The notes under the pieces: generated by a model | What the model was told of the DNA's origin: nothing | The model's input: the letters and a program-made list of their open reading frames with translations, nothing else | The model's database searches: none | Source of the DNA: a virus | Lineage: Duplodnaviria > Heunggongvirae > Uroviricota > Caudoviricetes | Virus record (IMG/VR): IMGVR_UViG_2537561712_000026 | Reading direction: 5' to 3' (one strand) | DNA length: 10,162 nt | Position numbers and translations under genes: made by a program | Shown here: positions 1-10,162 of the stretch, piece by piece | Layout of the letters: the number at the start of each line of letters is the position of its first letter | Position numbering within the stretch: position 1 is the first letter of the stretch

Positions 1-1362
1 ATGTTTAAACCGGAACTCCTTTCCCCGGCGGGAACGCTGAAAAATATGCGTTACGCTTTCGCTTATGGCGCAGATGCTGTTTATGCGGGCCAGCCGCGTT
101 ACTCCCTGCGTGTGCGCAACAACGAATTCAACCACGAAAACCTTCAGCTCGGCATCAATGAAGCCCACGCGCTGGGGAAAAAGTTTTATGTCGTGGTCAA
201 CATTGCACCGCACAACGCCAAGCTGAAAACCTTTATCCGTGACCTGAAACCGGTGGTGGAAATGGGGCCGGATGCGCTGATTATGTCCGATCCAGGGCTG
301 ATTATGCTGGTGCGTGAGCACTTCCCTGAAATGCCGATCCATCTCTCGGTACAGGCTAACGCCGTGAACTGGGCGACGGTGAAATTCTGGCAGCAAATGG
401 GACTGACCCGCGTGATCCTCTCTCGCGAGCTGTCGCTGGAAGAGATTGAAGAGATCCGCAATCAGGTGCCGGATATGGAGATCGAGATCTTCGTTCACGG
501 CGCACTGTGCATGGCCTACTCCGGTCGCTGCCTGCTCTCTGGCTATATCAACAAGCGCGATCCGAACCAGGGTACCTGCACCAACGCCTGCCGCTGGGAG
601 TACAACGTCCAGGAAGGGAAAGAAGATGACGTTGGCAACATCGTACACAAGTACGAGCCGATTCCGGTGCAAAATGTTGAGCCGACGCTGGGTATCGGCG
701 CGCCAACCGACAAAGTGTTTATGATCGAAGAAGCCCAGCGTCCGGGCGAGTATATGACCGCGTTTGAAGATGAGCACGGCACTTACATCATGAACTCGAA
801 AGATCTGCGCGCCATCGCCCATGTAGAACGCCTGACCAAAATGGGCGTGCATTCGCTGAAAATCGAAGGCCGTACTAAATCTTTCTACTATTGCGCACGC
901 ACCGCACAGGTTTATCGTAAAGCTATCGATGATGCCGCTGCGGGCAAACCGTTCGATACCAGCCTGCTGGAAACTCTGGAAGGTCTGGCGCATCGTGGCT
1001 ATACCGAAGGTTTCCTGCGTCGTCATACTCACGACGATTATCAGAACTACGAATACGGTTATTCAGTTTCTGACCGCCAGCAGTTTGTTGGTGAGTTTAC
1101 CGGTGAGCGCAAGGGGGACCTCGCGGCGGTAGCGGTGAAAAATAAATTCTCCGTTGGCGACAGCCTTGAGCTGATGACGCCGCAAGGCAACATTAACTTT
1201 ACCCTTGAGCACATGGAAAACGCCAAAGGCGAAGCTATGCCGGTAGCACCAGGCGATGGTTATACTGTGTGGCTCCCGGTGCCGCAGGATCTTGAGCTAA
1301 ATTACGCGCTGCTGATGCGTAATTTCTCCGGGGAAACTACGCGTAACCCCCACGGTAAGTGA
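1..1362 (+). CDS. rlhA: U32-family peptidase-like protein YegQ/RlhA (23S rRNA 5-hydroxycytidine synthase), complete
   Basis: 453-aa ORF starting at base 1. Translation recognised from memory as E. coli YegQ, same length, and its position immediately upstream of cyaR matches the K-12 order yegQ-cyaR-ogrK. Not database-verified. Confidence 0.88.
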   Translation: MFKPELLSPAGTLKNMRYAFAYGADAVYAGQPRYSLRVRNNEFNHENLQLGINEAHALGKKFYVVVNIAPHNAKLKTFIRDLKPVVEMGPDALIMSDPGLIMLVREHFPEMPIHLSVQANAVNWATVKFWQQMGLTRVILSRELSLEEIEEIRNQVPDMEIEIFVHGALCMAYSGRCLLSGYINKRDPNQGTCTNACRWEYNVQEGKEDDVGNIVHKYEPIPVQNVEPTLGIGAPTDKVFMIEEAQRPGEYMTAFEDEHGTYIMNSKDLRAIAHVERLTKMGVHSLKIEGRTKSFYYCARTAQVYRKAIDDAAAGKPFDTSLLETLEGLAHRGYTEGFLRRHTHDDYQNYEYGYSVSDRQQFVGEFTGERKGDLAAVAVKNKFSVGDSLELMTPQGNINFTLEHMENAKGEAMPVAPGDGYTVWLPVPQDLELNYALLMRNFSGETTRNPHGK

Positions 1363-1396
1363 TTAATTTCGATTATTTTTCCCGGATGGAAAATTC

Positions 1397-1446
1397 TTAG
1401 AAACCGATCACATACAGCTGCATTTATTAAGGTTATCATCCGTTTC
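1397..1446 (+). promoter_or_regulatory. cyaR promoter: candidate CRP half-site pair plus -10 element
   Basis: TTAGAAACCGATCACA at 1397..1412 (reverse complement TGTGATCGGTTTCTAA, resembling TGTGA-N6-TCACA) is centred about 42 bp upstream of the presumed cyaR 5' end. TATCAT at 1434..1439 is a plausible -10. CRP dependence of cyaR is established knowledge; the exact site assignment is my reading. Confidence 0.5.
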
Positions 1447-1533
1447 GCTGAAAAACATAACCCATAAAATGCTAGCTGTACCAGGAACCACCTCCTTAGC
1501 CTGTGTAATCTCCCTTACACGGGCTTATTTTTT
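1447..1533 (+). ncRNA. cyaR: CyaR (RyeE) Hfq-dependent small RNA
   Basis: Sequence GCTGAAAAACATAACCCATAAAATGCTAGCTGTACCAGGAACCACCTCCTTAGCCTGTGTAATCTCCCTTACACGGGCTTATTTTTT matches my recollection of cyaR. It contains the CCTCCTTA seed-like motif and ends in a hairpin (CCTGTGTAA...TTACACGGG) followed by a T-run. It sits between yegQ and ogr as in K-12. Confidence 0.8.
1507..1533. other. P2-type attachment core (prophage/host junction, attL or attR)
   Basis: AATCTCCCTTACACGGGCTTATTTTTT is the reverse complement of the 27-bp P2 att core as I remember it (AAAAAATAAGCCCGTGTAAGGGAGATT). It lies exactly between host cyaR and phage ogr, which is where attP sits in P2 (ogr-attP-int). Confidence 0.65.
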
Positions 1534-1574
1534 ACGCGTAATACAATGAAATAAAAGGATTTATTTCTGGTCAC

Positions 1575-1592
1575 GTCCACATATTGACCACA
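1575..1592 (-). promoter_or_regulatory. Possible integrase arm-type binding sites (direct repeats TGTGGAC / TGTGGTC, 11-bp spacing)
   Basis: On the minus strand TGTGGTC (1592..1586) and TGTGGAC (1581..1575) are direct repeats one helical turn apart in the att arm between core and ogr. They resemble the P2 Int arm-site motif as I recall it. Confidence 0.35.
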
Positions 1593-1597
1593 TCGAC

Positions 1598-1630
1598 AAA
1601 AAAAGCCCCTCAACTGAGGGGCTTTCTGTT
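1598..1630 (-). terminator. Rho-independent terminator downstream of ogr
   Basis: Minus-strand sequence AAAGCCCCTCAGTTGAGGGGCTTTTTTTG: 8-bp GC-rich stem (1604..1611 / 1615..1622) followed by a T7 run, directly 3' of the ogr stop at 1636. Confidence 0.65.
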
Positions 1631-1635
1631 TGTAA

Positions 1636-1854
1636 TTACATCCACATAATTTGCTGCCCTGACGGCAACGGGTGCGGTCTTACGGCGTGGACTTCTCCCG
1701 GCTTCACGATGTATCGCTGTACCGACTCATAAGTGATGAACGTGGCGCTGCAATTCACGTTCTGACACTGGTGATAACGCTCTTTTGTCGTGTCAGTGAT
1801 ATAGCGACTTGTACGCGCATGTGCGGCATGCTGGCATAAAGGACAATGAAACAT
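1636..1854 (-). CDS. ogr: Ogr late-gene transcriptional activator (zinc-finger, 72 aa)
   Basis: Translation MFHCPLCQHAAHARTSRYITDTTKERYHQCQNVNC... has the CxxC...CxxC zinc-binding motif and is recognised as P2 Ogr / K-12 OgrK. AGAGG Shine-Dalgarno 8 nt upstream of the ATG at 1854. The ORF track's 93-aa version uses an upstream in-frame ATG that I consider unlikely. Confidence 0.88.
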   Translation of the reverse strand: MFHCPLCQHAAHARTSRYITDTTKERYHQCQNVNCSATFITYESVQRYIVKPGEVHAVRPHPLPSGQQIMWM

Positions 1855-1935
1855 CGCGAGCACCTCTTCCGGTTTTGTTGATGGTGCCATTTTAGTTAAT
1901 TTATCCTTATAAAACAAACAGATAAAATAAAAACA

Positions 1936-3099
1936 TCATTCATCATCTTCTGTTTCGTATTCCACATCAGAAAGCCTGACCTCAAGCTCTAAGGACGTCG
2001 TGAAGCCGCTATTATTCAGAAAATGTGTCACCTTAGTGATGGTCCAGTCCTGCTCGTCTATGACGCGCTTAAAGCCTGACACTCTGACCGGTGTTTCCGT
2101 GTAAATATCTGCACGACCGGTAGCCAGGATGATGGAGAACTCCGCAACGCCCCGTTGCAGTTTGTCCCACTTCGCCTGAGCAGCACGCATGGCCTGTGCT
2201 TTCGTGGCATATACCGTGGTCAGGGCAAAAACGTTGTCAGCCTCACCGGCCATGTATTCACCTTCGCGCGCTTCCGGTACTTTTGGCGCTTTCTTCTGCC
2301 TGACCGGTTTCGCTTTCGGGTGCTCCAGTGCGCGCAGGTGTTTCTCTTTCTTTTTGCGTTTCAGTTTTACCTTCTGCTTTTGCGGTTTCGGGTCTTTGGT
2401 GTGTAACCACTTTGCCGTTACACCGGTATAGGCTCCACGGTCAGCAATCGCAAAATGATGGCGGTCGCCGTCGCTGCGGGTTATGGTGACCTGCGGGATT
2501 TTTTTACCGCTGGCCGTCACCCCCTGCCCCGCTTTGAGAAACAACAGTTTTCCCATTTTTACCGAGACCTCACCGCCGTTGCGTTCAGCAAGGCGGGTCA
2601 GGAATTTTGCATCAGACTCCTGCGACTGGTCGATGTGCGGGATTTTAATTCCGGCCAGTGACGGCGCGACACTGGCTTCCAGCCTGTTACGGGAGGCTAT
2701 TGCCTCAACAATCGCACCGAGCGTGGTGTCATGCCAGGAGTCTTCACGGCGGGAATTGAGCGTCCCGCGAAAATCTGCACTCCGGGCGCGGATGGTGACC
2801 ACATCCGGCGCGCCCCGGTGTTCAACCTCATCAACGGTAAATTTCCCTTTGCATACCAGGGCAAAACCTTTCCAGCCGATATACACCGTCAGGACAGCGC
2901 CACGAATCGGCAGCCCGACCTGCCCGTCGGCATCGTTCAGTTCAATATCAAGCTGGTCAGCCTCAAAGCCCCGGTTATCCGTCAGAGTCATGCTCATCAG
3001 ACGGTCGCTGATATTGCCGGTAATATCCCTGCTGTCGAGCATCAGCATGTAATCCGGCGTCAGCGTACTGCCTGCATCAAATGTCAGTGCATCCAGCAT
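1936..3099 (-). CDS. D: Tail/baseplate protein D (phage late control gene D family)
   Basis: 387 aa, the same length as P2 gpD. Position between U and ogr matches P2. Start ATG overlaps the U stop in a TAATG arrangement. Confidence 0.88.
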   Translation of the reverse strand: MLDALTFDAGSTLTPDYMLMLDSRDITGNISDRLMSMTLTDNRGFEADQLDIELNDADGQVGLPIRGAVLTVYIGWKGFALVCKGKFTVDEVEHRGAPDVVTIRARSADFRGTLNSRREDSWHDTTLGAIVEAIASRNRLEASVAPSLAGIKIPHIDQSQESDAKFLTRLAERNGGEVSVKMGKLLFLKAGQGVTASGKKIPQVTITRSDGDRHHFAIADRGAYTGVTAKWLHTKDPKPQKQKVKLKRKKKEKHLRALEHPKAKPVRQKKAPKVPEAREGEYMAGEADNVFALTTVYATKAQAMRAAQAKWDKLQRGVAEFSIILATGRADIYTETPVRVSGFKRVIDEQDWTITKVTHFLNNSGFTTSLELEVRLSDVEYETEDDE

Positions 3100-3578
3100 T
3101 ATCCCGCCCCCGTCATACCTGTGAATTTAGTCGCCATACTGCCAGCCTTACCGATGAGCGATTCCGCCTGTTTACCGATATCGCCATAAAGCGCGGCCAG
3201 TGGTTCGTCAACGCGGGTGAGCGACAGCGTAAAATCAATTTTTCGGGGTGTGCCGTCTGCAAAGAAAATACTCCCTGTTTCACTCACCCTGCTGATGACA
3301 TACATGCCGTAAATCATGCCGGTGCCATCCAGCAACGGCCACGCCCGACCTTCCTCTGCCATCAGCCTGAGCGTGGTCATCGTCAGCTTGCCGCCGGTCA
3401 GTTCGGGATAAAGCACACCGGCCAGCGTCATGTTTTCCTCGCCAACGCCGAGAAACTGGTAGGCATCCCGTTTACCGATACGGGAATTTGACGGCCAGCG
3501 ATAATCTGATTCACGCTGCATGGTCTGGTGTGGCAGCGTCTGGCGCATAAAAACAAACATACCTAACGCGAGCATCAT
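3099..3578 (-). CDS. U: Tail protein U
   Basis: 159 aa, the same length as P2 gpU, in synteny between T and D. Assigned by length and position rather than by direct sequence recognition. Confidence 0.8.
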   Translation of the reverse strand: MMLALGMFVFMRQTLPHQTMQRESDYRWPSNSRIGKRDAYQFLGVGEENMTLAGVLYPELTGGKLTMTTLRLMAEEGRAWPLLDGTGMIYGMYVISRVSETGSIFFADGTPRKIDFTLSLTRVDEPLAALYGDIGKQAESLIGKAGSMATKFTGMTGAG

Positions 3579-3592
3579 TTTTCGTCACCTCC

Positions 3593-6040
3593 TTAACCGT
3601 CATGCATCATGCTGGCACGGGCGCGCGCACGTTTATCCCGCTCGTATTTTTCGAGCGCATCCTGTAACTGGCGGTCAAGCTGTGTCCCCGGCGCAGTACC
3701 ACCCGTCAGGCTGATGTGATATTCGTTTTTACTCTGGTCCACATAAGAGCGGCCAGCCGGTGCCGTGACCGGCTGATAAGCCTGATAGCCTGCATAAGAG
3801 CTGGTCGCCGGAATATAACCACCGGTGCCATACGTGGCGGCATGAGTTCTGGCGGCGGTCTGGTCAAGTGTGTCTGACTCTTTGTTGATAACACCGAGTT
3901 TTTCCAGTACCCAGTCAATACCACTGCGCAGTTTGTTGAACGCATTAAGCGGCAGCATCAACGCGTCAGCCAGTGCCTGCCCGAACATGACGCCCGTGTC
4001 ACGGCAACGGTTCAGGGTGTCCTGGGTGGCTTTGACCGGGGCAATCAGTTTTTTAAACCACTGCCACGCGGCCTGTAACTTTTCACCCAGCCAGTCAAAC
4101 AGCGGCTTAAGTGGCGTGAACAGTTCCCCCACCGGCGCAAATGCAGCTTTCAGCCCTTCAACCACACCGCCAAAGAATGCGCTGACAGGCTCCCAGTATT
4201 TACGGATAAGCAACGCCCCGGCGACAATTGCAGCCACCACGGCCACAACCGGCCAGCTAATCGCCCCGATGGCCGTCATAACAGCACTGCCAACCGTCGT
4301 GAAGATTGCCCCCATTGCGCCTGCTGCCGCGATGATGGCATTAATGCCGGTGATAACCGGCCAGGCTACAAGACCAATTGCACCGATGATGCCAATAAGC
4401 GCCAGTGCGCCACCGACAATAAGGCCGATGGTTGACGCCAGTGATTTGTTTTTCTGGATCCAGCCGTCGAGTTTTAACACATACTTTGTGGCCGTCTGCG
4501 TGAGATTACGCAGTGCGCCTTCCTGTTGGTCAAACAGGTCAGTCCCCACCGCCTCATAAGCGGACTGAAACTCCTTAAAGTCACCGCCGAGGTTGTCCTG
4601 CATGATATTTACCAGCTCTGCGGTCTTCCCGTCTGAGGCTTTAAACGCAGCGGTCAGTTTGTCCAGCTTTCCGGTTGAGGCGGCAGTCATCAGCACGGCG
4701 GCGGCTGAACTGGCCTCCTCCCCGAAAATGGTTTTCATGTATTCAGCCTGCTGGGCAGTACCGAGCCGGTTTTTCTCAAAACTGGCCTGCATTTCTTTCA
4801 GAATGGTAAATATTGGTCGGGTATTCCCCTTGCTGTCTGAGGTTTTCACTCCAAGCTCTTTGAGTGCATCCCATGCTTTTCCCGTCGGTGCCTGCAGGCG
4901 ACTTAACACGGCACGGCTTCCCGTCCCCGCCATTGAGCCTGTGATTTTTGCATCATGCAGCGCCCCGACCATTGCGGCGGTTTCTTCAATGCTGACACCG
5001 GCATTTTTTGCCACAGGTGCGGCATAGGTCAGCGCATCGCTCATACCGTCAAAATCGGCGGCGGTTTTGTTCATCGTCATGGAGAGAACATCCCCGATAT
5101 GAGCAACCTTATCGTTTGAAAGCTGAAAGGCAGATTTCATCCCCATCAGCAGGGCGGCGTTTTCTTCCATCGTGCGACGGTTCGCCAGCGCCATATTCAG
5201 CGTGACCGGCGTTGCCGCCTGAATGGCATCAACATCCCCACCCGCTTTCGCGATGATAATCTGTGCACCGGCCGCATCATCCGCCGAGGCGGCGGTATTG
5301 TCGCCGAGCTGGCGCGCCTGCTTGCGTAGCGCGGCCATTTCGGCGGAGTCTTTTGCCACACCGAGCACGGCCTGTAATTCTGAGTTTTTCTGCGCAAATT
5401 CATAACCGGGCATCAGCAGCTTAACACCGGCCATCGTTCCCGCCGCCGCAATCCCCACACCGGCAGCGCCCACTGAGGCCATATTTCCGGCCAGCTCCTT
5501 TCCTGCCTGATAGCGCTGTTTTACTGCGTTAAGTTTTGCCTGTTGCGCACTGACACGCGCCAGCGCGTCACGCTGCCGGTTAAGCTGTGCGGTGGTTTCA
5601 CTGATACGGTTTTTCAGCCCCAGCTCATCATGTGCAAGATTGCGGGTATTAATTCCCACAGCGGCCAGTTCCCGCTGCTGGCGTTTAACGGAATCCGTCA
5701 GGCGGTTATATTTCGCCTGTAAGTCCTCCGCCGCACGCTTTGCGGATTCCAGCACTTTCGCCTGAGCACGGGTCGGACGTTCGGTGTTTTTAAACTGTGT
5801 GGCAAGGGCTTCGGCCTCCTGCCGTGCCTTTTCAAGTGCATGACCAGTCACGGCGAGCTGTGCGCTGGTCTTGCGGAATCCCTCAATACGGGATGCCTGC
5901 CCGTTCAGCTCGCGCAGTGATTTTTGTGTTTCCCGGATATCCCCCGACAGCGACTTACTCGCTGTGCGGATGGATTTAAACGGGCGGGATGCCTGGTCAA
6001 CAGCCCTGAGCAATACCTGTAATTTTACATTGTTACTCAT
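3593..6040 (-). CDS. T: Tail tape measure protein T
   Basis: 815 aa (P2 gpT length). Coiled-coil-rich N-terminal half, a Gly/Ala/Ile-rich hydrophobic central segment, and the expected position downstream of E/E'. Confidence 0.9.
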   Translation of the reverse strand: MSNNVKLQVLLRAVDQASRPFKSIRTASKSLSGDIRETQKSLRELNGQASRIEGFRKTSAQLAVTGHALEKARQEAEALATQFKNTERPTRAQAKVLESAKRAAEDLQAKYNRLTDSVKRQQRELAAVGINTRNLAHDELGLKNRISETTAQLNRQRDALARVSAQQAKLNAVKQRYQAGKELAGNMASVGAAGVGIAAAGTMAGVKLLMPGYEFAQKNSELQAVLGVAKDSAEMAALRKQARQLGDNTAASADDAAGAQIIIAKAGGDVDAIQAATPVTLNMALANRRTMEENAALLMGMKSAFQLSNDKVAHIGDVLSMTMNKTAADFDGMSDALTYAAPVAKNAGVSIEETAAMVGALHDAKITGSMAGTGSRAVLSRLQAPTGKAWDALKELGVKTSDSKGNTRPIFTILKEMQASFEKNRLGTAQQAEYMKTIFGEEASSAAAVLMTAASTGKLDKLTAAFKASDGKTAELVNIMQDNLGGDFKEFQSAYEAVGTDLFDQQEGALRNLTQTATKYVLKLDGWIQKNKSLASTIGLIVGGALALIGIIGAIGLVAWPVITGINAIIAAAGAMGAIFTTVGSAVMTAIGAISWPVVAVVAAIVAGALLIRKYWEPVSAFFGGVVEGLKAAFAPVGELFTPLKPLFDWLGEKLQAAWQWFKKLIAPVKATQDTLNRCRDTGVMFGQALADALMLPLNAFNKLRSGIDWVLEKLGVINKESDTLDQTAARTHAATYGTGGYIPATSSYAGYQAYQPVTAPAGRSYVDQSKNEYHISLTGGTAPGTQLDRQLQDALEKYERDKRARARASMMHDG

Positions 6041-6206
6041 TCGTGTTTCCGCTTCGCCTGAGCGCCTTTTCGCGCCATGTGATGAGTTCGGTCAGGCTCA
6101 TGGGATACAGTTCTGATGGCGGCCAGTGAAATACCACTGCCACATCCGCCATCAGGTCATCGACCGAGAGATTTTTCGGAAACGTCACTGCACCGAGTTC
6201 GGCGAC
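6033..6206 (-). CDS. E': E' extension of the tail assembly chaperone, reached by programmed -1 frameshift from E (E+E' fusion 142 aa)
   Basis: Slippery heptamer TTTTTTG on the minus strand (plus 6206..6212) lies 6 codons before the E stop. Reading on in the -1 frame gives 57 more residues (VAELGAVTFPKNLSVDDLMADVAVVFHWPPSELYPMSLTELITWREKALRRSGNTNE) and stops at TAA 6033..6035, overlapping the T start (ATGAGTAA). 85 + 57 = 142 aa, the P2 E+E' length. Confidence 0.8.
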   Translation of the reverse strand, partial: VAELGAVTFPKNLSVDDLMADVAVVFHWPPSELYPMSLTELITWREKALRRSGNTNE

Positions 6207-6460
6207 AAAAAACCGACCACCTTACCGGCCAGCGCCACAAGGTCAGGCAGTTCCAGCGCGGCGACCTCCTGTTCGGTCAGCATCGGTGCCGTCATGCGCG
6301 GCAGCACTTTAATCAGTGCATCGACTTCGGAGTTCGCGACCGCAGCCAGACTGACACCGCGCAGCGTCCCGGCATTGGGTTTCATCAGCGTGACCTGTTC
6401 GATAACCTGCTCACCACGCTTGACCGGATTGTCCAGGGTAATCACATTTTCTTTGTTCAT
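6185..6460 (-). CDS. E: Tail assembly chaperone E
   Basis: 91 aa, MNKENVITLDNPVKRGEQ...; length and sequence recognised as P2 gpE; located between FII and T. Confidence 0.88.
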   Translation of the reverse strand: MNKENVITLDNPVKRGEQVIEQVTLMKPNAGTLRGVSLAAVANSEVDALIKVLPRMTAPMLTEQEVAALELPDLVALAGKVVGFLSPNSVQ

Positions 6461-6488
6461 GGTTTTCTCACTTCTGAATCAGGGTTAA

Positions 6489-6509
6489 CCGGTCAGCCTG
6501 GCTGACCGG
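6489..6509 (-). other. Intercistronic stem-loop between FII and E (no U-tract)
   Basis: CCGGTCAG-CCTGG-CTGACCGG: perfect 8-bp inverted repeat with a 5-nt loop in the 56-bp FII-E spacer. Followed by TTAACCC rather than a T-run, so not a classical intrinsic terminator. Confidence 0.4.
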
Positions 6510-6516
6510 ATGAAAA

Positions 6517-7035
6517 TCACAGGCCGATATTGCGGCGGTGTTGCTCCAGCCGGTCGACGCCGTTCACCTTCTCAATCATGTTGATGGTGTCGATTTCGAC
6601 CAGCTCCTTACCGTCCATCGTCAGCCGGAAATAGGTGCAGACCACGGAGATTTTCGACTCGGTGTCTTCTCCCTGTTTACCCTCGCCGGTGTCGATTTCT
6701 TTCTGACGGCCACGCATGACCACCTCGACGGCCACCGTTTCGCCGGTATCGTCGCGCTGGTAAGAGCCTGCAAAACGAATCGGTACGGCATCCACACCGG
6801 TTGCGGCGTAAAGCTCCCAGATAACCGAATCCGGGAAGCCACCGAGCGACCACTCCATTGACAGCGCATCGTCATCAAGGCCGAGGTCTACCGGTGCGCT
6901 GCCATTCATCCCCGCACCGCGATAGTTTTCGAGCTTACGGGTCAGTTTTGGCAGCGTGACGGACTTCGCGACGCCCTGATAGCTGTAGCCGTTCAGAAAG
7001 ACGTTCATTAACTTGAGTTTGCGCGGCATTGCCAT
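6517..7035 (-). CDS. FII: Major tail tube protein FII
   Basis: 172 aa (P2 gpFII length); sequence recognised; AAGGAG Shine-Dalgarno upstream; follows FI with a 12-bp gap. Confidence 0.9.
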   Translation of the reverse strand: MAMPRKLKLMNVFLNGYSYQGVAKSVTLPKLTRKLENYRGAGMNGSAPVDLGLDDDALSMEWSLGGFPDSVIWELYAATGVDAVPIRFAGSYQRDDTGETVAVEVVMRGRQKEIDTGEGKQGEDTESKISVVCTYFRLTMDGKELVEIDTINMIEKVNGVDRLEQHRRNIGL

Positions 7036-7047
7036 CGGTCAGGCTCC

Positions 7048-8238
7048 TTAATTGCTGTTAACCGAGGTGACCAGATTTGCCAGGTATTTATCGGTGATAC
7101 GCTGGCGCAGGGTCAGGTTTTCAAGAGGAGGTACCGGTGTATAGTCGTAGTCGATATACAGTTTTCCGGCCTTGAGGGTTTCCGCATCGCTGGATTCTTC
7201 GCTGAACCAGCAGGTCGCATCCACGATATAGCCGTTTGTTTTCAGCTCACGGAATTTGGCATTGATGCCGTCAACGATGTCGCGAATCAGCGTTGCGGTG
7301 ATGGGCTTGTCCACCGCCCACATGTGCGCCTCAGCCATCGTGTCGGCCAGCACCTGCGCGGTGCGGGTGTAGTTTTCAAAGAGGAACAGCGGGTCATCAG
7401 AGCAGGTACGGTTACCCCAGAAGCGGAAACCGTCGCGGCGAATCAGCGTAGTGACGCCTGACTCGTTAAGCAGGTCAGCATCGGTGCCGGACTCCTGCAA
7501 ATCCCAGAATACAGATGCGCTGATGCCGTTAACACCGTTTACCCCGACGTTGGACAGCGTTTTATGCCAGCCCTGCTCCTGGTCGATTTTAGCGCGCAGA
7601 CCCAGCGCACGGGCGGTGGCATACGCGGTGGCGGTGGTGCTGCTGACCGTATCCCATGCGAGGAAATCCGGCCAGATGACCATCAGCTCACGCTGGCTGA
7701 AATTCTGGCGGTAGGCTTTCACCTCGGAAATGGTTTTACAGCCCCATGCGCTGATATACCCGAAAGCGCGCAGCTTCTGACAGACTGATGCCAGTGCAAC
7801 AGCCACCTCTTTGGTGTCCAGTCCCGGCACGCCGAGAATACGCGGTTTAACACCGGTTACCGACTCTGCCGCCAGCAGGGCTTTCAGTCCGGTATACTGA
7901 CCGTTTTCGTCAGTGGTGCCGATGATATTGGAAACGGTCTGCGCGAGTTTCGTTTCTTCGTCGTCGCCGGTGCCGTCTTCAACACGCACGACAACGGTAA
8001 CCGGTTTTGACTGGTCAGCGATGGCCTGCAACGATGCCGCCAGCGTGCCTTTTTTACCGGCCTTTGCAATTGCGCTCTGCACATTGGTAATCAGCACAGG
8101 TTTATTGAGGGGGAAGGTTTCCGCATCCGCATCGCTGGCCGTGCAGACCATGCCGACAATGGCGGTGGATACGGTGGAAATGACGCGGGTGCCGTCGTTA
8201 ATCTCCAGCACCTGCACGCCGTGATGATAATCACTCAT
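7048..8238 (-). CDS. FI: Contractile tail sheath protein FI
   Basis: 396 aa (P2 gpFI length); sequence recognised as P2-type tail sheath; first gene of the FI-FII-E-T-U-D operon. Confidence 0.9.
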   Translation of the reverse strand: MSDYHHGVQVLEINDGTRVISTVSTAIVGMVCTASDADAETFPLNKPVLITNVQSAIAKAGKKGTLAASLQAIADQSKPVTVVVRVEDGTGDDEETKLAQTVSNIIGTTDENGQYTGLKALLAAESVTGVKPRILGVPGLDTKEVAVALASVCQKLRAFGYISAWGCKTISEVKAYRQNFSQRELMVIWPDFLAWDTVSSTTATAYATARALGLRAKIDQEQGWHKTLSNVGVNGVNGISASVFWDLQESGTDADLLNESGVTTLIRRDGFRFWGNRTCSDDPLFLFENYTRTAQVLADTMAEAHMWAVDKPITATLIRDIVDGINAKFRELKTNGYIVDATCWFSEESSDAETLKAGKLYIDYDYTPVPPLENLTLRQRITDKYLANLVTSVNSN

Positions 8239-8335
8239 CCGTTTAACTCCGTGGTTAATGGGTGAGTGATATTTTCAGTTGTGCCGGAGATGTCAGGCTA
8301 TTTGTCCCGGTTGGCTAAGGGATGACACAATTTAT
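8239..8335 (-). promoter_or_regulatory. Expected Ogr-dependent late promoter region for the FI operon (element not resolved)
   Basis: Position only: P2 late promoter P_F lies immediately upstream of FI. I could find only imperfect TGT-N12-ACA-like dyads here (for example TGT-N12-CCA on the minus strand around 8311..8329). The region overlaps the 3' end of the invertase gene. Confidence 0.3.
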
Positions 8336-8891
8336 TCTTTGTCGCTGATGAGGGGAATTTTTTATAGAGCGTGGACAGGCCAATATCAAAAATCAGCGCC
8401 ACACGTTGACGAGATTCCCCCGCAGCCAGCAACCGTCCGACCTGCTCCCACTCACTCGTGGTGAGTTTCGGTCGTCTGCCACCAATACGACCTTTGGCTC
8501 TGGCCGCTTCCAGTCCGGCGCGTGTCCGCTCGACAATGAGTTCTCGCTCCATTTCTGCCAGGGCCCCCATCACATGAAAGAAAAAGCGCCCCATCGGCGT
8601 GCTGGTATCAATAGCATCCGTCAGGCTGCGAAAATTAACGCCGCGTTCGCGCAGTTCCTCAACCAGAATGACCAGATGCCGCATACTACGCCCCAGCCTA
8701 TCCAGCTTCCAGACTACCAGAGTGTCACCTGCTGATAATGTTCTGAGCAGTTTTTTCAGTCCCGGTCGGTCGGACTTCGTGCCGCTGATTTTATCCTCAA
8801 AAATCAGCTCACATCCTGCACACTCCAGCGCATTACGCTGCAATTCCGTGTTCTGGTCATTTGTTGACACGCGTACATAGCCAATAAGCAT
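8298..8891 (-). CDS. Serine DNA invertase, Hin/Gin/Cin/Pin family
   Basis: Translation MLIGYVRVSTNDQNTELQRNAL...VVWKLDRLGRSMRHL...MGRFFFHVMGALAEMERELIVERTRAGL...GRIGGRRPKLT...STLYKK closely resembles E. coli Pin and Mu Gin, with the catalytic Ser in YVRVSTNDQ and a C-terminal helix-turn-helix. Start chosen at the ATG at 8891 (197 aa); ATG 8897 is an alternative. The ORF track's 265-aa version (to 9095) has a 66-residue N-terminal extension I consider non-coding. Confidence 0.85.
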   Translation of the reverse strand: MLIGYVRVSTNDQNTELQRNALECAGCELIFEDKISGTKSDRPGLKKLLRTLSAGDTLVVWKLDRLGRSMRHLVILVEELRERGVNFRSLTDAIDTSTPMGRFFFHVMGALAEMERELIVERTRAGLEAARAKGRIGGRRPKLTTSEWEQVGRLLAAGESRQRVALIFDIGLSTLYKKFPSSATKNKLCHPLANRDK

Positions 8892-8946
8892 GAGCATCTC
8901 CCTGAATAAAAACCGGAGATGATGCCAGTTACCCGTTATTTCTGCA

Positions 8947-8972
8947 TTTTCATAAACGTTGGTTTGGGAGAA
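8947..8972. other. Candidate 26-bp inversion crossover site (hix/gix/cix-like), left border of the invertible segment
   Basis: TTTTCATAAACG-TT-GGTTTGGGAGAA has the 12-2-12 architecture and the AAACC/GGTTT-type inner half-site motifs of hixL and gixL as I recall them (TTCTTGAAAACC-AA-GGTTTTTGATAA, TTCCTGTAAACC-GA-GGTTTTGGATAA). It lies 56 bp upstream of the invertase start and inside the open tail-fibre frame. Confidence 0.5.
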
Positions 8973-9445
8973 GCGGCAAAACGGGATGTGGGGACAGGGG
9001 AAAATCAGCCACTCCGCCGACAGGCTGGCTGAAATGCAACGGGGCGGCTTTTTCTGCTGAAGAATACCCGGAACTGGCAAAGGTTTACCCGACAAATAAA
9101 TTGCCTGATTTACGTGGTGAGTTTATTCGTGGCTGGGATGACGGACGTGGAGTGGATAACGGAAGGGGATTATTGACGCTTCAGGACGGTGCGATTGTCA
9201 GTCATAACCACTATTGGGGAATCTGGACTTCACGAACTAACGACCAGACTCTGGAAAGTTTTACAGGCACCACGATTTTAAAACAAATCACGCCCCTGTC
9301 TCCGGCCATTAACTTCGATAATTACCCAATTCCCAACCCGGCTATTACAGAGGGTGGTGTTGTTGCGGCAACGACTAAACCTGCAGGTGCGAATGAAACA
9401 CGCCCACGAAATGTCGCTTTTAACTATATTGTGAGGGCTGCATAA
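8960..9445 (+). CDS. Tail-fibre C-terminal variable (receptor-binding) cassette; no start codon or promoter in this orientation
   Basis: The frame is open from 8906 to the TAA at 9443..9445 with no in-frame ATG (the track starts it at a TTG at 9101). It encodes ...GWLKCNGAAFSAEEYPELAKVYPTNKLPDLRGEFIRGWDDGRG...RPRNVAFNYIVRAA, resembling the C-terminal region of P2 H and Mu S (AYPKLAVAYP...LPDMRG...NIAFNYIVRLA). It begins at the candidate crossover site. Confidence 0.6.
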   Translation, partial: WFGRSGKTGCGDRGKSATPPTGWLKCNGAAFSAEEYPELAKVYPTNKLPDLRGEFIRGWDDGRGVDNGRGLLTLQDGAIVSHNHYWGIWTSRTNDQTLESFTGTTILKQITPLSPAINFDNYPIPNPAITEGGVVAATTKPAGANETRPRNVAFNYIVRAA

Positions 9446-10047
9446 TGAATAACGCAGAATTAAACAGTGAATTAATTGCCACTATGGCAGGAGAAATTAC
9501 TGTTTATAACTTTGATGTCATGAGTCGGGAATATATTTCAGCTTCAACTGAATATCTTGCTATTGGTGTCGGCATTCCGGCATATTCCTGTTTAGATGCC
9601 CCAGGCGCATACAAAGCTGGTTATGCAATCTGCCGTTCTGCAGATTTTAACTCATGGGAATATGTGCCAGACCATCGCGGTGAAATCGTCTTTAGCACCG
9701 AAACAGGAGAATCAAAAGAAATCACCGCTCCGGGTGATTACCCTGATAATACAACCACTATCGCCCCGTTAACGCCATACGATAAATGGGATGGTGAGAA
9801 ATGGGTGACGGATACCGAAGCACAGCATAGCGCCGCAGTAGAAGCGGCAGAAACACAACGCCAGTCGCTGATTGATACTGCAATGGCTTCCATTAGTCTG
9901 ATTCAGCTGAAATTACAGGCCGGACGGAAGCTGACGCAGGCAGAAACCAACCGACTTAACACGGTGCTGGATTACATTGACGCGGTGACGGCAACAGATA
10001 CCAGCACCGCGCCGGATGTCATCTGGCCTGAACTGCCGGAGGCGTAG
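9445..10047 (+). CDS. Tail-fibre assembly (chaperone) protein, Tfa / P2 G / Mu U family
   Basis: 200 aa. ATG overlaps the upstream TAA (TAATG coupling). C-terminus ...LDYIDAVTATDTSTAPDVIWPELP has the conserved Tfa C-terminal motif. Confidence 0.8.
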   Translation: MNNAELNSELIATMAGEITVYNFDVMSREYISASTEYLAIGVGIPAYSCLDAPGAYKAGYAICRSADFNSWEYVPDHRGEIVFSTETGESKEITAPGDYPDNTTTIAPLTPYDKWDGEKWVTDTEAQHSAAVEAAETQRQSLIDTAMASISLIQLKLQAGRKLTQAETNRLNTVLDYIDAVTATDTSTAPDVIWPELPEA

Positions 10048-10162
10048 GCCATTCAATATCTGGCGCACTGGCGGTATCGACCAGCTCCAGTGCGTCCAGA
10101 TAATCCAGCCACAAATTATATTGTGCCAGTTCCTCACCTTTCAGATGGTAATGGATGGATGA
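10019..10162 (-). CDS. Second tail-fibre assembly protein, C-terminal 47 codons only (5' end beyond window)
   Basis: Minus-strand frame reads ...HYHLKGEELAQYNLWLDYLDALELVDTASAPDIEWPTPPAVQAR with stop at 10019..10021. This is the same conserved Tfa C-terminal motif, convergent with and overlapping the plus-strand tfa by 29 bp. It is absent from the ORF track because no start codon lies inside the window. Confidence 0.65.
   Translation of the reverse strand, partial: SSIHYHLKGEELAQYNLWLDYLDALELVDTASAPDIEWPTPPAVQAR

Follow-up and report, generated by a model that had tools for sequence, protein, structure and literature searches.

Does the invertase gene beside the tail genes of this P2-type virus genome belong to a host-range switch, and, if so, in what state is that switch in the present copy? 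The DNA in question (10,162 nt; IMG/VR record IMGVR_UViG_2537561712_000026; hereafter, the window, which is the whole stretch analyzed) was the subject of a preliminary description that proposed a switch in the style of the Mu G segment or the e14 P segment, grafted onto a P2-type tail. This proposal is supported by the invertase, by the crossover site, by an inverted partner site in near-identical genomes, and by the presence of both segment orientations among such genomes. In the best explanation, in which we have high confidence, a P2-like prophage of the Peduovirus pro483 type lies beside yegQ and the window covers its right arm, and a module resembling the e14 P segment (an invertible segment of ~1.9 kb, two convergent cassette-chaperone pairs, and a Pin-type invertase) replaces the C-terminal part of H, G, and Z/fun.

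Genomic context of the module

The window opens with yegQ (1–1362, + strand), which is followed on the − strand by a P2-type right arm consisting of ogr, D, U, T, E/E′, FII (6517–7035), and FI (7048–8238). The open reading frames of the window and the RefSeq annotation of the identical locus in Escherichia coli EC4115 yield the Peduovirus late-gene order, H/G ... FI-FII-E/E′-T-U-D-ogr, and the FII-FI stretch is 97% identical at the DNA level to P2-like phages. The insertion point of the prophage adjoins yegQ in an E. coli O157:H7-type chromosome. Positions 1–10145 match many E. coli O157:H7 chromosomes with 99.8% identity, and at least 80% of the window is covered in 747 of the 5,426 complete E. 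coli genomes. Between the EC4115 locus (L001, offset +9000) and window positions 1–8972 there are zero differences; those that exist are confined to 8973–9004 and to the region beyond 10145. In RefSeq, the EC4115 locus is a P2-like prophage that continues into baseplate, lysis, and head genes. The Sakai prophage Sp13 was considered as the identity of the element and ruled out, because Sp13 is without most morphogenesis genes (PMC2669165), which the present prophage has.

The invertase and its putative enhancer

The gene at 8298–8891 (− strand) encodes a 197 aa serine DNA invertase of the Pin/Gin/Cin/Hin subfamily, as had been proposed. The assignment follows from the Pfam matches (Resolvase, 2.8e-52; HTH_7, 4.8e-13), from the match to the Gin crystal structures 3UJ3/4M6F (~1e-93, aligned over residues 1–182), and from identities of 85.3% with e14 PinE, 77.0% with Mu Gin, and 78.5% with P1 Cin. 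The start at 8891 (MLIGYVRVST) agrees with the N-termini of Gin, Cin, and Pin and with the RefSeq call in the identical genomes. The catalytic Ser9 is present, and so are Y5, R7, R42, and R68. In addition, the protein has the helix-B basic patch K46/K47/R50 and, in helix 1 of the DNA-binding domain, Q150/R153/L154; these residues align with Hin K47, K/R48, and K/R51 and with Hin Q151, R154, and L155, respectively, in a provisional Hin-based numbering, and they can likewise be seen in the Gin alignment. The patch and the helix-1 residues are conserved only in invertases that depend on Fis and an enhancer (McLean et al., PMC3798978). Judged by its residues, the protein is a member of the Pin/Gin/Cin-type, Fis/enhancer-dependent subfamily, and, with all of the signature residues present, it appears intact; inactivating changes would have spoken against a switch. 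The invertase gene is transcribed away from the segment, and a simple scan for a sigma-70-like promoter of this gene found none.

In gin, cin, and pin, the recombinational enhancer acts in cis and is part of the 5′-terminal coding sequence of the invertase itself. The P1 record places the cin enhancer at cin nt 19–90. In this stretch, pinE, gin, cin, and the invertase gene of the window are all colinear, and the window is 78% identical to cin, the corresponding positions being 8802–8873 (− strand; coding nt 19–90 of the invertase). The homologous stretch falls within the region 8750–8890, in which an enhancer had been predicted. Matches to the Fis consensus KNNYRNNWNNYRNNM, which is so degenerate that about one match per 128 positions is expected, are found at 8855–8869 and 8807–8821, with centers 48 bp apart; the pair, at coding nt 23–37 and 71–85, is kept in the invertase gene of the window, pinE, gin, and cin. 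The same spacing of 48 bp between two Fis sites was reportedly found for the Hin enhancer by Johnson et al. in 1987, a study cited in PMC3798978. Conservation of synonymous sites was considered as independent evidence and dropped, since a comparison of the four sequences showed no significantly stronger conservation in the enhancer stretch than in the rest of the gene (Fisher p = 0.31). We regard 8802–8873 as a putative enhancer, and the invertase as presumably dependent on Fis.

The crossover site and its reading frame

A 26-bp crossover site, TTTTCATAAACG-TT-GGTTTGGGAGAA, is located at 8947–8972 (+ strand), with the core dinucleotide at 8959–8960, and forms the invertase-proximal boundary of the segment. 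The preliminary description had reported a 12-2-12 site 56 bp upstream of the invertase start, and this is indeed the distance to the ATG at 8891 (56 nt). It had also suggested a comparison with known sites: letter for letter, the sequence is that of the invertase-proximal site of the e14 P segment (pix type), and it aligns with gixL/R and cixL/R. The core AAACC-NN-GGTTT is common to all aligned sites, the central dinucleotide being TT in pix, cix, and both O157 sites, and TC in gix. The window holds a single copy, and 200 shuffles gave 0 matches at three or fewer mismatches. With a half-site matrix made from pix, gix, and cix sites, and including the scored site itself, the site scored 28.9, compared with 7.2 for the next-best position of the window and 13.1 for the best of 50 shuffles; the matrix search returned a single site for the window and precisely two for its relatives. 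A chance match is ruled out by the shuffles and the matrix scores, and, by sequence, 8947–8972 is a genuine crossover site of the pix/gix/cix type.

The site had further been described as lying inside a tail-fiber reading frame. A + strand frame, 8924–9445, is indeed open across it, but this is not the frame used by the switch in this window. The functional frame (..FINVGLGE..) stops at 9030–9032. It is read by a short ORF at 8922–9032 (+ strand) that starts between the invertase gene and the site, passes through the site, and has the translation MPVTRYFCIFINVGLGEAAKRDVGTGENQPLRRQAG*. In the window, this ORF is truncated to only 36 aa. From this ATG, EC4115 has a collar ORF of 177 aa (L001 17919–18452), and genomes with the flipped segment have a gp53-like ORF of 136 aa (L002 4031–4441).

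The partner site and the two orientations of the segment

Neither the partner site nor the constant part of H falls within the window, which ends ~0.7 kb before the expected position of the partner; at ~0.7 kb past the end, the partner is expected to read TTCTCCCAAACCAAGGTATGCGAGAA on the + strand. The evidence for it comes from near-identical genomes, identical to the window over 1–8972. In EC4115, the only other match to the matrix is an inverted partner, TTCTCCCAAACC-AA-GGTATGCGAGAA, at L001 19850–19875. Read from outside to inside, it is TTCTCGCATACC-TT-GGTTTGGGAGAA, so that the inner half-site and the TT core are the same as in the proximal site. Lack of an inverted partner within a few kilobases had been named as an argument against a switch; the EC4115 partner lies 1875 nt to the right of the first site. 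A second segment, linked to pinE and with a site of this type, is also present in the O157 genomes.

In EC4115, H (L001 20689–19490, − strand) is a single uninterrupted ORF of 399 aa with the partner site inside. It consists of a P2-H-like N-terminal part, the sequence LAYLGLGE across the site, and a gp53-like C-terminus. Over its first 270 residues, this protein shows homology to P2 gpH, in which a YLGL.E motif occupies the equivalent module boundary. Strain 2010C-3142 (L002) and others have the segment in the flipped orientation, at 100% identity, and the gp53-like cassette then adjoins the invertase gene. H is an uninterrupted ORF in these genomes as well, of 439 aa, in which LAYLGLGE is followed by a collar-type cassette; Pfam Collar is recorded on this product. 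Thus, both fusions are in frame in the relatives, and there are two convergent Caudo_TAP genes, that is, one chaperone per cassette.

One of these cassettes is visible in the window. The collar-type C-terminal tail-fiber cassette at 9005–9445 (+ strand) is a silent copy here and matches the C-terminal part of the flipped genomes' 439-aa H with 100% identity. It is followed by its paired tail-fiber assembly chaperone gene at 9445–10047 (+ strand; Pfam Caudo_TAP, 1.3e-32), in the position that is occupied by tfaE in e14 and by U in Mu. The second assembly gene, convergent with the first and associated with the gp53-like cassette, is represented by its 3′ end at 10019–10145 (− strand; Caudo_TAP, 5.3e-10), which is identical to L001 19026–19152.

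Both orientations of the ~1.9-kb segment, as would be expected of a switch, are found among sequenced O157:H7 genomes at 100% identity. Of 33 contigs read for the chaperone protein, 31 were classifiable, with the segment flipped in about 19 and unflipped in about 12, and strains of one sequencing series differ in segment orientation at 100% identity. Therefore, as far as can be judged from genome comparison, the lineage has clearly been switching by inversion; this evidence concerns the lineage, and the source strain of the window and the role of this particular enzyme lie outside it.

Boundaries of the module and the proposed mechanism

The left boundary of the module lies at pF, the Ogr-dependent late promoter region of P2 upstream of FI (8239–8330, − strand), as delimited by alignment with P2 and pro483. 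The P2 annotation includes the activator site of pF, and the pF region is conserved between the window and P2. Homology with P2 and with invertase-less P2-like phages runs from FI through pF and ends at about position 8330. The last ~11 codons of the invertase gene and its stop codon are located within this P2-homologous DNA, which accounts for the C-terminal extension of the protein compared with PinE. The other boundary is the crossover site inside H. With boundaries at about 8330 and at the crossover site in H, the module therefore replaces the 3′ part of H, G, and Z/fun. The invertase had been assigned to the slot in which P2 carries Z/fun. This holds insofar as P2 carries fun(Z) between G and FI, but the module extends further and also takes the place of G and of the C-terminal part of H.

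According to the Hin/Gin paradigm, invertase dimers would bind the site at 8947–8972 and its inverted partner inside H, and would assemble into an invertasome together with Fis, which would occupy the enhancer within the first ~90 bp of the invertase coding sequence. The enzyme would then cut at the TT core, followed by rotation. As a result, the constant part of H would be fused alternately to the collar-type or the gp53-like receptor-binding end, which would change the host range. Inferred from this paradigm are the Fis dependence, the actual rate of switching, and the effect on the host range.

Two private junctions in the present copy

The window differs from the relatives examined at two junctions. 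The first is a patch of 36 nt at 8973–9008 (+ strand), which is the start of the other, gp53-like cassette and ends in a TCAG that is common to the collar cassette. The patch replaces a leader of 43 nt that belongs to the collar cassette, and the transition falls at the shared TCAG. Positions 8959–9008 are the reverse complement of L001 19814–19863 (100%), and 8240–9008 and 9005–10145 match different places of the flipped genomes, each with 100% identity. Because of this leader swap, the frame of the switch (..GLGE AAKRDVGTGENQ..) stops at 9030–9032, and a different frame is used by the collar cassette. With a distal end like that of EC4115, the inverted repeat would be lengthened from ~16 to 50 bp. 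The proximal collar cassette, when flipped onto H, would give a fiber that is truncated 23 residues after the LGLGE of the crossover site.

The second junction, 10145/10146, interrupts the second chaperone gene, which continues at this point in every other genome examined. The last 17 nt of the window, TGGTAATGGATGGATGA (10146–10162), do not continue this gene, and they do not correspond to the start that would be expected for the gp53-like cassette either. Aligned in opposite orientation with the coding strand of the gp53-like cassette, they agree with it at 16 of 17 positions, and each of the gp53-like cassettes examined differs from them by one base.

Neither junction was found in the 5,426 complete E. 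coli genomes or, by exact-pattern scans, in the GTDB representative genomes, the JGI metagenomes, and IMG/VR. Exact-protein look-ups of the three window-specific ORFs in a gene catalogue returned nothing except an unrelated, frameshifted read assembly. Several simple origins were considered and rejected. A third or secondary crossover site, as in the three-repeat shufflon of EPEC, was looked for with the matrix, which found none near 9005 or 10145, and simple inversions, either of the whole segment or of nested sub-pieces, do not yield both junctions. An ordinary mosaic boundary in the assembly gene at 10145/10146 is contradicted by the genomes, 0 of 5,426 of which cover at least 80% of window 10112–10162, and by the phage proteins, which align only from residue 6.

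The out-of-frame cassette together with the second private junction implies that the segment may be partly or wholly non-functional in this copy. The switch could, accordingly, be a decaying relic here, in which there is either no inversion or an ON/OFF alternation between a working and a truncated fiber. We consider this possible, at rather less than even odds. It is favored by the collar cassette being out of frame with the site, by the break in the second chaperone gene at 10145/10146, which has no counterpart among the 5,426 complete E. coli genomes, and by the absence of both junctions from every collection scanned. However, outside the junctions the module is 100% identical to genomes that show both orientations, and any damage must therefore be very recent; moreover, the invertase gene and the crossover site are untouched, and the remainder of the segment lies outside the window.

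The damage might also be apparent rather than real. If the source culture was of mixed orientation, the junctions could have arisen as errors of assembly or consensus calling, in which case the actual locus would resemble EC4115 or the flipped form. Cultures with such switches are indeed mixed (PMC4272514), several related draft contigs (L007–L012) break exactly at the segment boundaries, and the junctions are unique to the window. Nevertheless, we consider this explanation unlikely. The junctions share only 3–5 nt (TCAG or CAG) with their partners, an overlap that would be too short for a de Bruijn-graph chimera and a match too poor for over-extension during polishing. Furthermore, the rest of the window is error-free compared with EC4115, and the 17-nt tail has one base that sets it apart from every gp53-like cassette examined.

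The junctions may represent either a private rearrangement or an assembly error. The first of them would be compatible with a template switch for which the inverted repeat provided the priming. More speculatively, and with slightly less confidence than we would give to an artifact, the 36-nt patch may reflect a real and recent event in which synthesis primed at the inner half of the site transferred the distal leader to the proximal cassette and returned at the TCAG, a microhomology of 4 nt, and the 10145/10146 junction may be a second product of the same instability. If so, the patch would be a snapshot of how long inverted repeats originate, such as those of 34 bp in Mu G and 0.6 kb in P1 C, and of a two-state host-range switch turning into an ON/OFF switch of the fiber.

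Finally, the invertase and the short ORF might mainly serve the host, either the enzyme by acting in trans on other segments or the ORF product, made upon inversion, as a free receptor-binding protein that blocks phages. There are documented cases of action in trans, by Fin on the H segment of Salmonella and by PinQ, PinR, and PinE on the P segment of e14, and the pinE-linked segment of the O157 genomes would offer a similar target. According to a recent claim, StfE2 of e14, an invertase-proximal N-terminal stub fused to a gp53-like domain, blocks the adsorption of T2 (PMC12529663), and the 136-aa gp53-like fusion ORF of the flipped O157 genomes starts from the same stub ATG. Yet this explanation is improbable, given that the stub ORF has only 36 aa in the window and that the prophage of the relatives possesses a complete complement of P2 genes for tail, lysis, and head, together with both full-length H fusions, which is what a phage host-range switch needs.

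Significance

About 750 of the 5,426 complete E. coli genomes, many of them O157:H7, carry this yegQ-adjoining prophage with an invertible tail-fiber module of the e14/Mu type. Orientation differences between assemblies at this locus are therefore programmed variation and neither misassemblies nor strain markers. This is of use in the comparison of O157 genomes and in typing or engineering with these prophages or with tailocin-like tails. Beyond annotation, the importance is small, and the private rearrangement is a curiosity that bears on segment decay or on the growth of inverted repeats.

Comparison with known invertible systems

The P segment of e14 in E. coli K-12, with its invertase PinE, has an identical proximal site, an invertase with 85% identity, and a segment of ~1.8–1.9 kb. 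The layout is also alike: the invertase gene is transcribed away from the segment, a collar-type cassette is followed by a tfaE-like chaperone gene, and a second cassette is associated with a convergent, tfaP-like chaperone gene. However, e14 is a defective lambdoid element with a remnant of a fiber gene, whereas the present module is joined to an N-terminal P2-type H in a prophage with complete P2 tail genes. Two further differences are the outer half of the distal site (TTCTCGCATACC here, CTCTCGAAAACC in e14) and the C-terminus of the invertase, which is 13 aa longer than that of PinE and runs into the P2 pF DNA.

Mu G with Gin and P1 C with Cin have invertases of the same subfamily (77–78.5% identity), sites of the same 12-2-12 design, an enhancer, putative in the present system, in the 5′ end of the invertase gene, and alternative fiber C-termini that each have their own chaperone. 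Unlike the present system, they reside in other phages and have longer segments (3 kb and 4.2 kb) and inverted repeats of, respectively, 34 bp and 0.6 kb. The cin gene of P1 is directed toward the segment, with cixL overlapping its 3′ end; in Mu, the gix core is TC rather than TT. Salmonella Hin and its H segment are more distant. The identity is ~63%, an approximate figure, and the Fis-contact and helix-B residues are conserved (PMC3798978), but hin is located inside its own segment and switches a flagellin promoter, with no fusion of fiber genes.

Within the P2 family, the system can be likened, by description, to Fin of Fels-2 in Salmonella LT2/LT7 and to the prophages of EPEC E2348/69, in which a Pin-like invertase is found beside an invertible tail-fiber segment. 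In Fels-2, the pin homologue fin adjoins the inverted tail-fiber segment (PMC7953296), and for the P2-like prophages of EPEC E2348/69 and for e14, phase variation by inversion has been shown by sequencing and PCR (PMC4272514); in the Fels-2 and EPEC systems, inversion was seen between strains or within cultures (PMC7953296; PMC4272514). One EPEC locus differs in having three inverted repeats and four variants, whereas the close relatives of the window have two sites.

Close phage relatives are Escherichia phage pro483 (Peduovirus pro483) and further P2-like records (the O157:H43 T22 phage, S164, and MET_P1_103_31), with 96.6% DNA identity over 6500–10145 and the same order of FI, DNA invertase, collar fiber, two convergent chaperones, and H. 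In contrast to the window, pro483 has an in-frame collar leader and an intact second chaperone gene, and it is without the two junctions. The architecture is already known, both from the GenBank record of pro483, in which the gene is annotated as a DNA invertase, and from the literature on Fels-2 Fin and the EPEC prophages. New here are the hybrid 36-nt leader and the 10145/10146 junction of this copy of an otherwise ordinary system.

Sequence features around the crossover site

At positions 8973-9008 of the window, the invertase-proximal collar cassette does not carry its own leader but that of the gp53-like cassette (36 nt), and the switch point is a TCAG common to both cassettes (9005-9008). 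As a consequence of this leader swap, the crossover site and the collar cassette are in different reading frames, and the inverted repeat would be lengthened to 50 bp. A second example of the swap was found in none of the other sequences searched.

Between the invertase and the crossover site, the plus strand contains an ATG preceded by GGAG (8919-8924), and the ORF that starts there crosses the site and continues into the cassette that happens to be proximal. In near-identical O157:H7 relatives, this ORF encodes 177 aa with the collar cassette or 136 aa with the gp53-like cassette (positions 4031-4441 of L002, the flipped locus of strain 2010C-3142); in the window, its length is 36 aa.

At the right end of the window, the convergent gene for tail-fibre assembly is broken off after CCTTTCAGA (10145/10146). 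The final 17 nt (10146-10162) read TGGTAATGGATGGATGA and are translated on the plus strand as SDGNGWM; 16 of the 17 nt are identical to the gp53-like cassette (ASGDGWM), albeit in the opposite orientation. This junction was present in none of 5426 E. coli genomes.

Module boundaries and gene H

At its 3' end (..CHPLANRDK*, 8298-8333), the ORF of the invertase consists of DNA homologous to the pF late-promoter/activator-binding region upstream of FI in P2. Thus, the stop codon of the invertase falls within P2 promoter sequence that is conserved, and the end of the inserted module is at about 8330. P2 lacks an invertase, yet around residues 373-385 of its H protein (735-2744 of the P2 record) VIEYLGLQETVNR aligns with LAYLGLGEAAKRD, which is encoded at the crossover site. 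This alignment suggests an old module boundary at this position. In EC4115, H is one uninterrupted ORF of 399 aa (19490-20689 of L001, the EC4115 locus). RefSeq represents it as two features, a pseudogene labelled "partial, missing C-terminus" and a gp53-like protein of its own; this division is an artefact of annotation that arises from the orientation-dependent fusion.

Comparison with other invertible segments

O157:H7 genomes also contain a second, pinE-linked invertible tail-fibre segment (3538-6341 of the record from strain ECP19-2498), which resides in a different prophage with baseplate genes of the Mu/e14 type. The site and the gp53-like region of this segment show about 96% identity, and each of the two invertases could act on the segment of the other. 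The counterpart of the short site-crossing ORF in e14 is stfE/StfE2, which is claimed to act against phages (PMC12529663). In P1 (5661-6235 of the P1 record), cin is directed toward the C segment, with cixL overlapping the 3' end of the gene. In Mu, e14 and the window prophage, transcription of the invertase gene leads away from the segment, and the site lies upstream of the gene.
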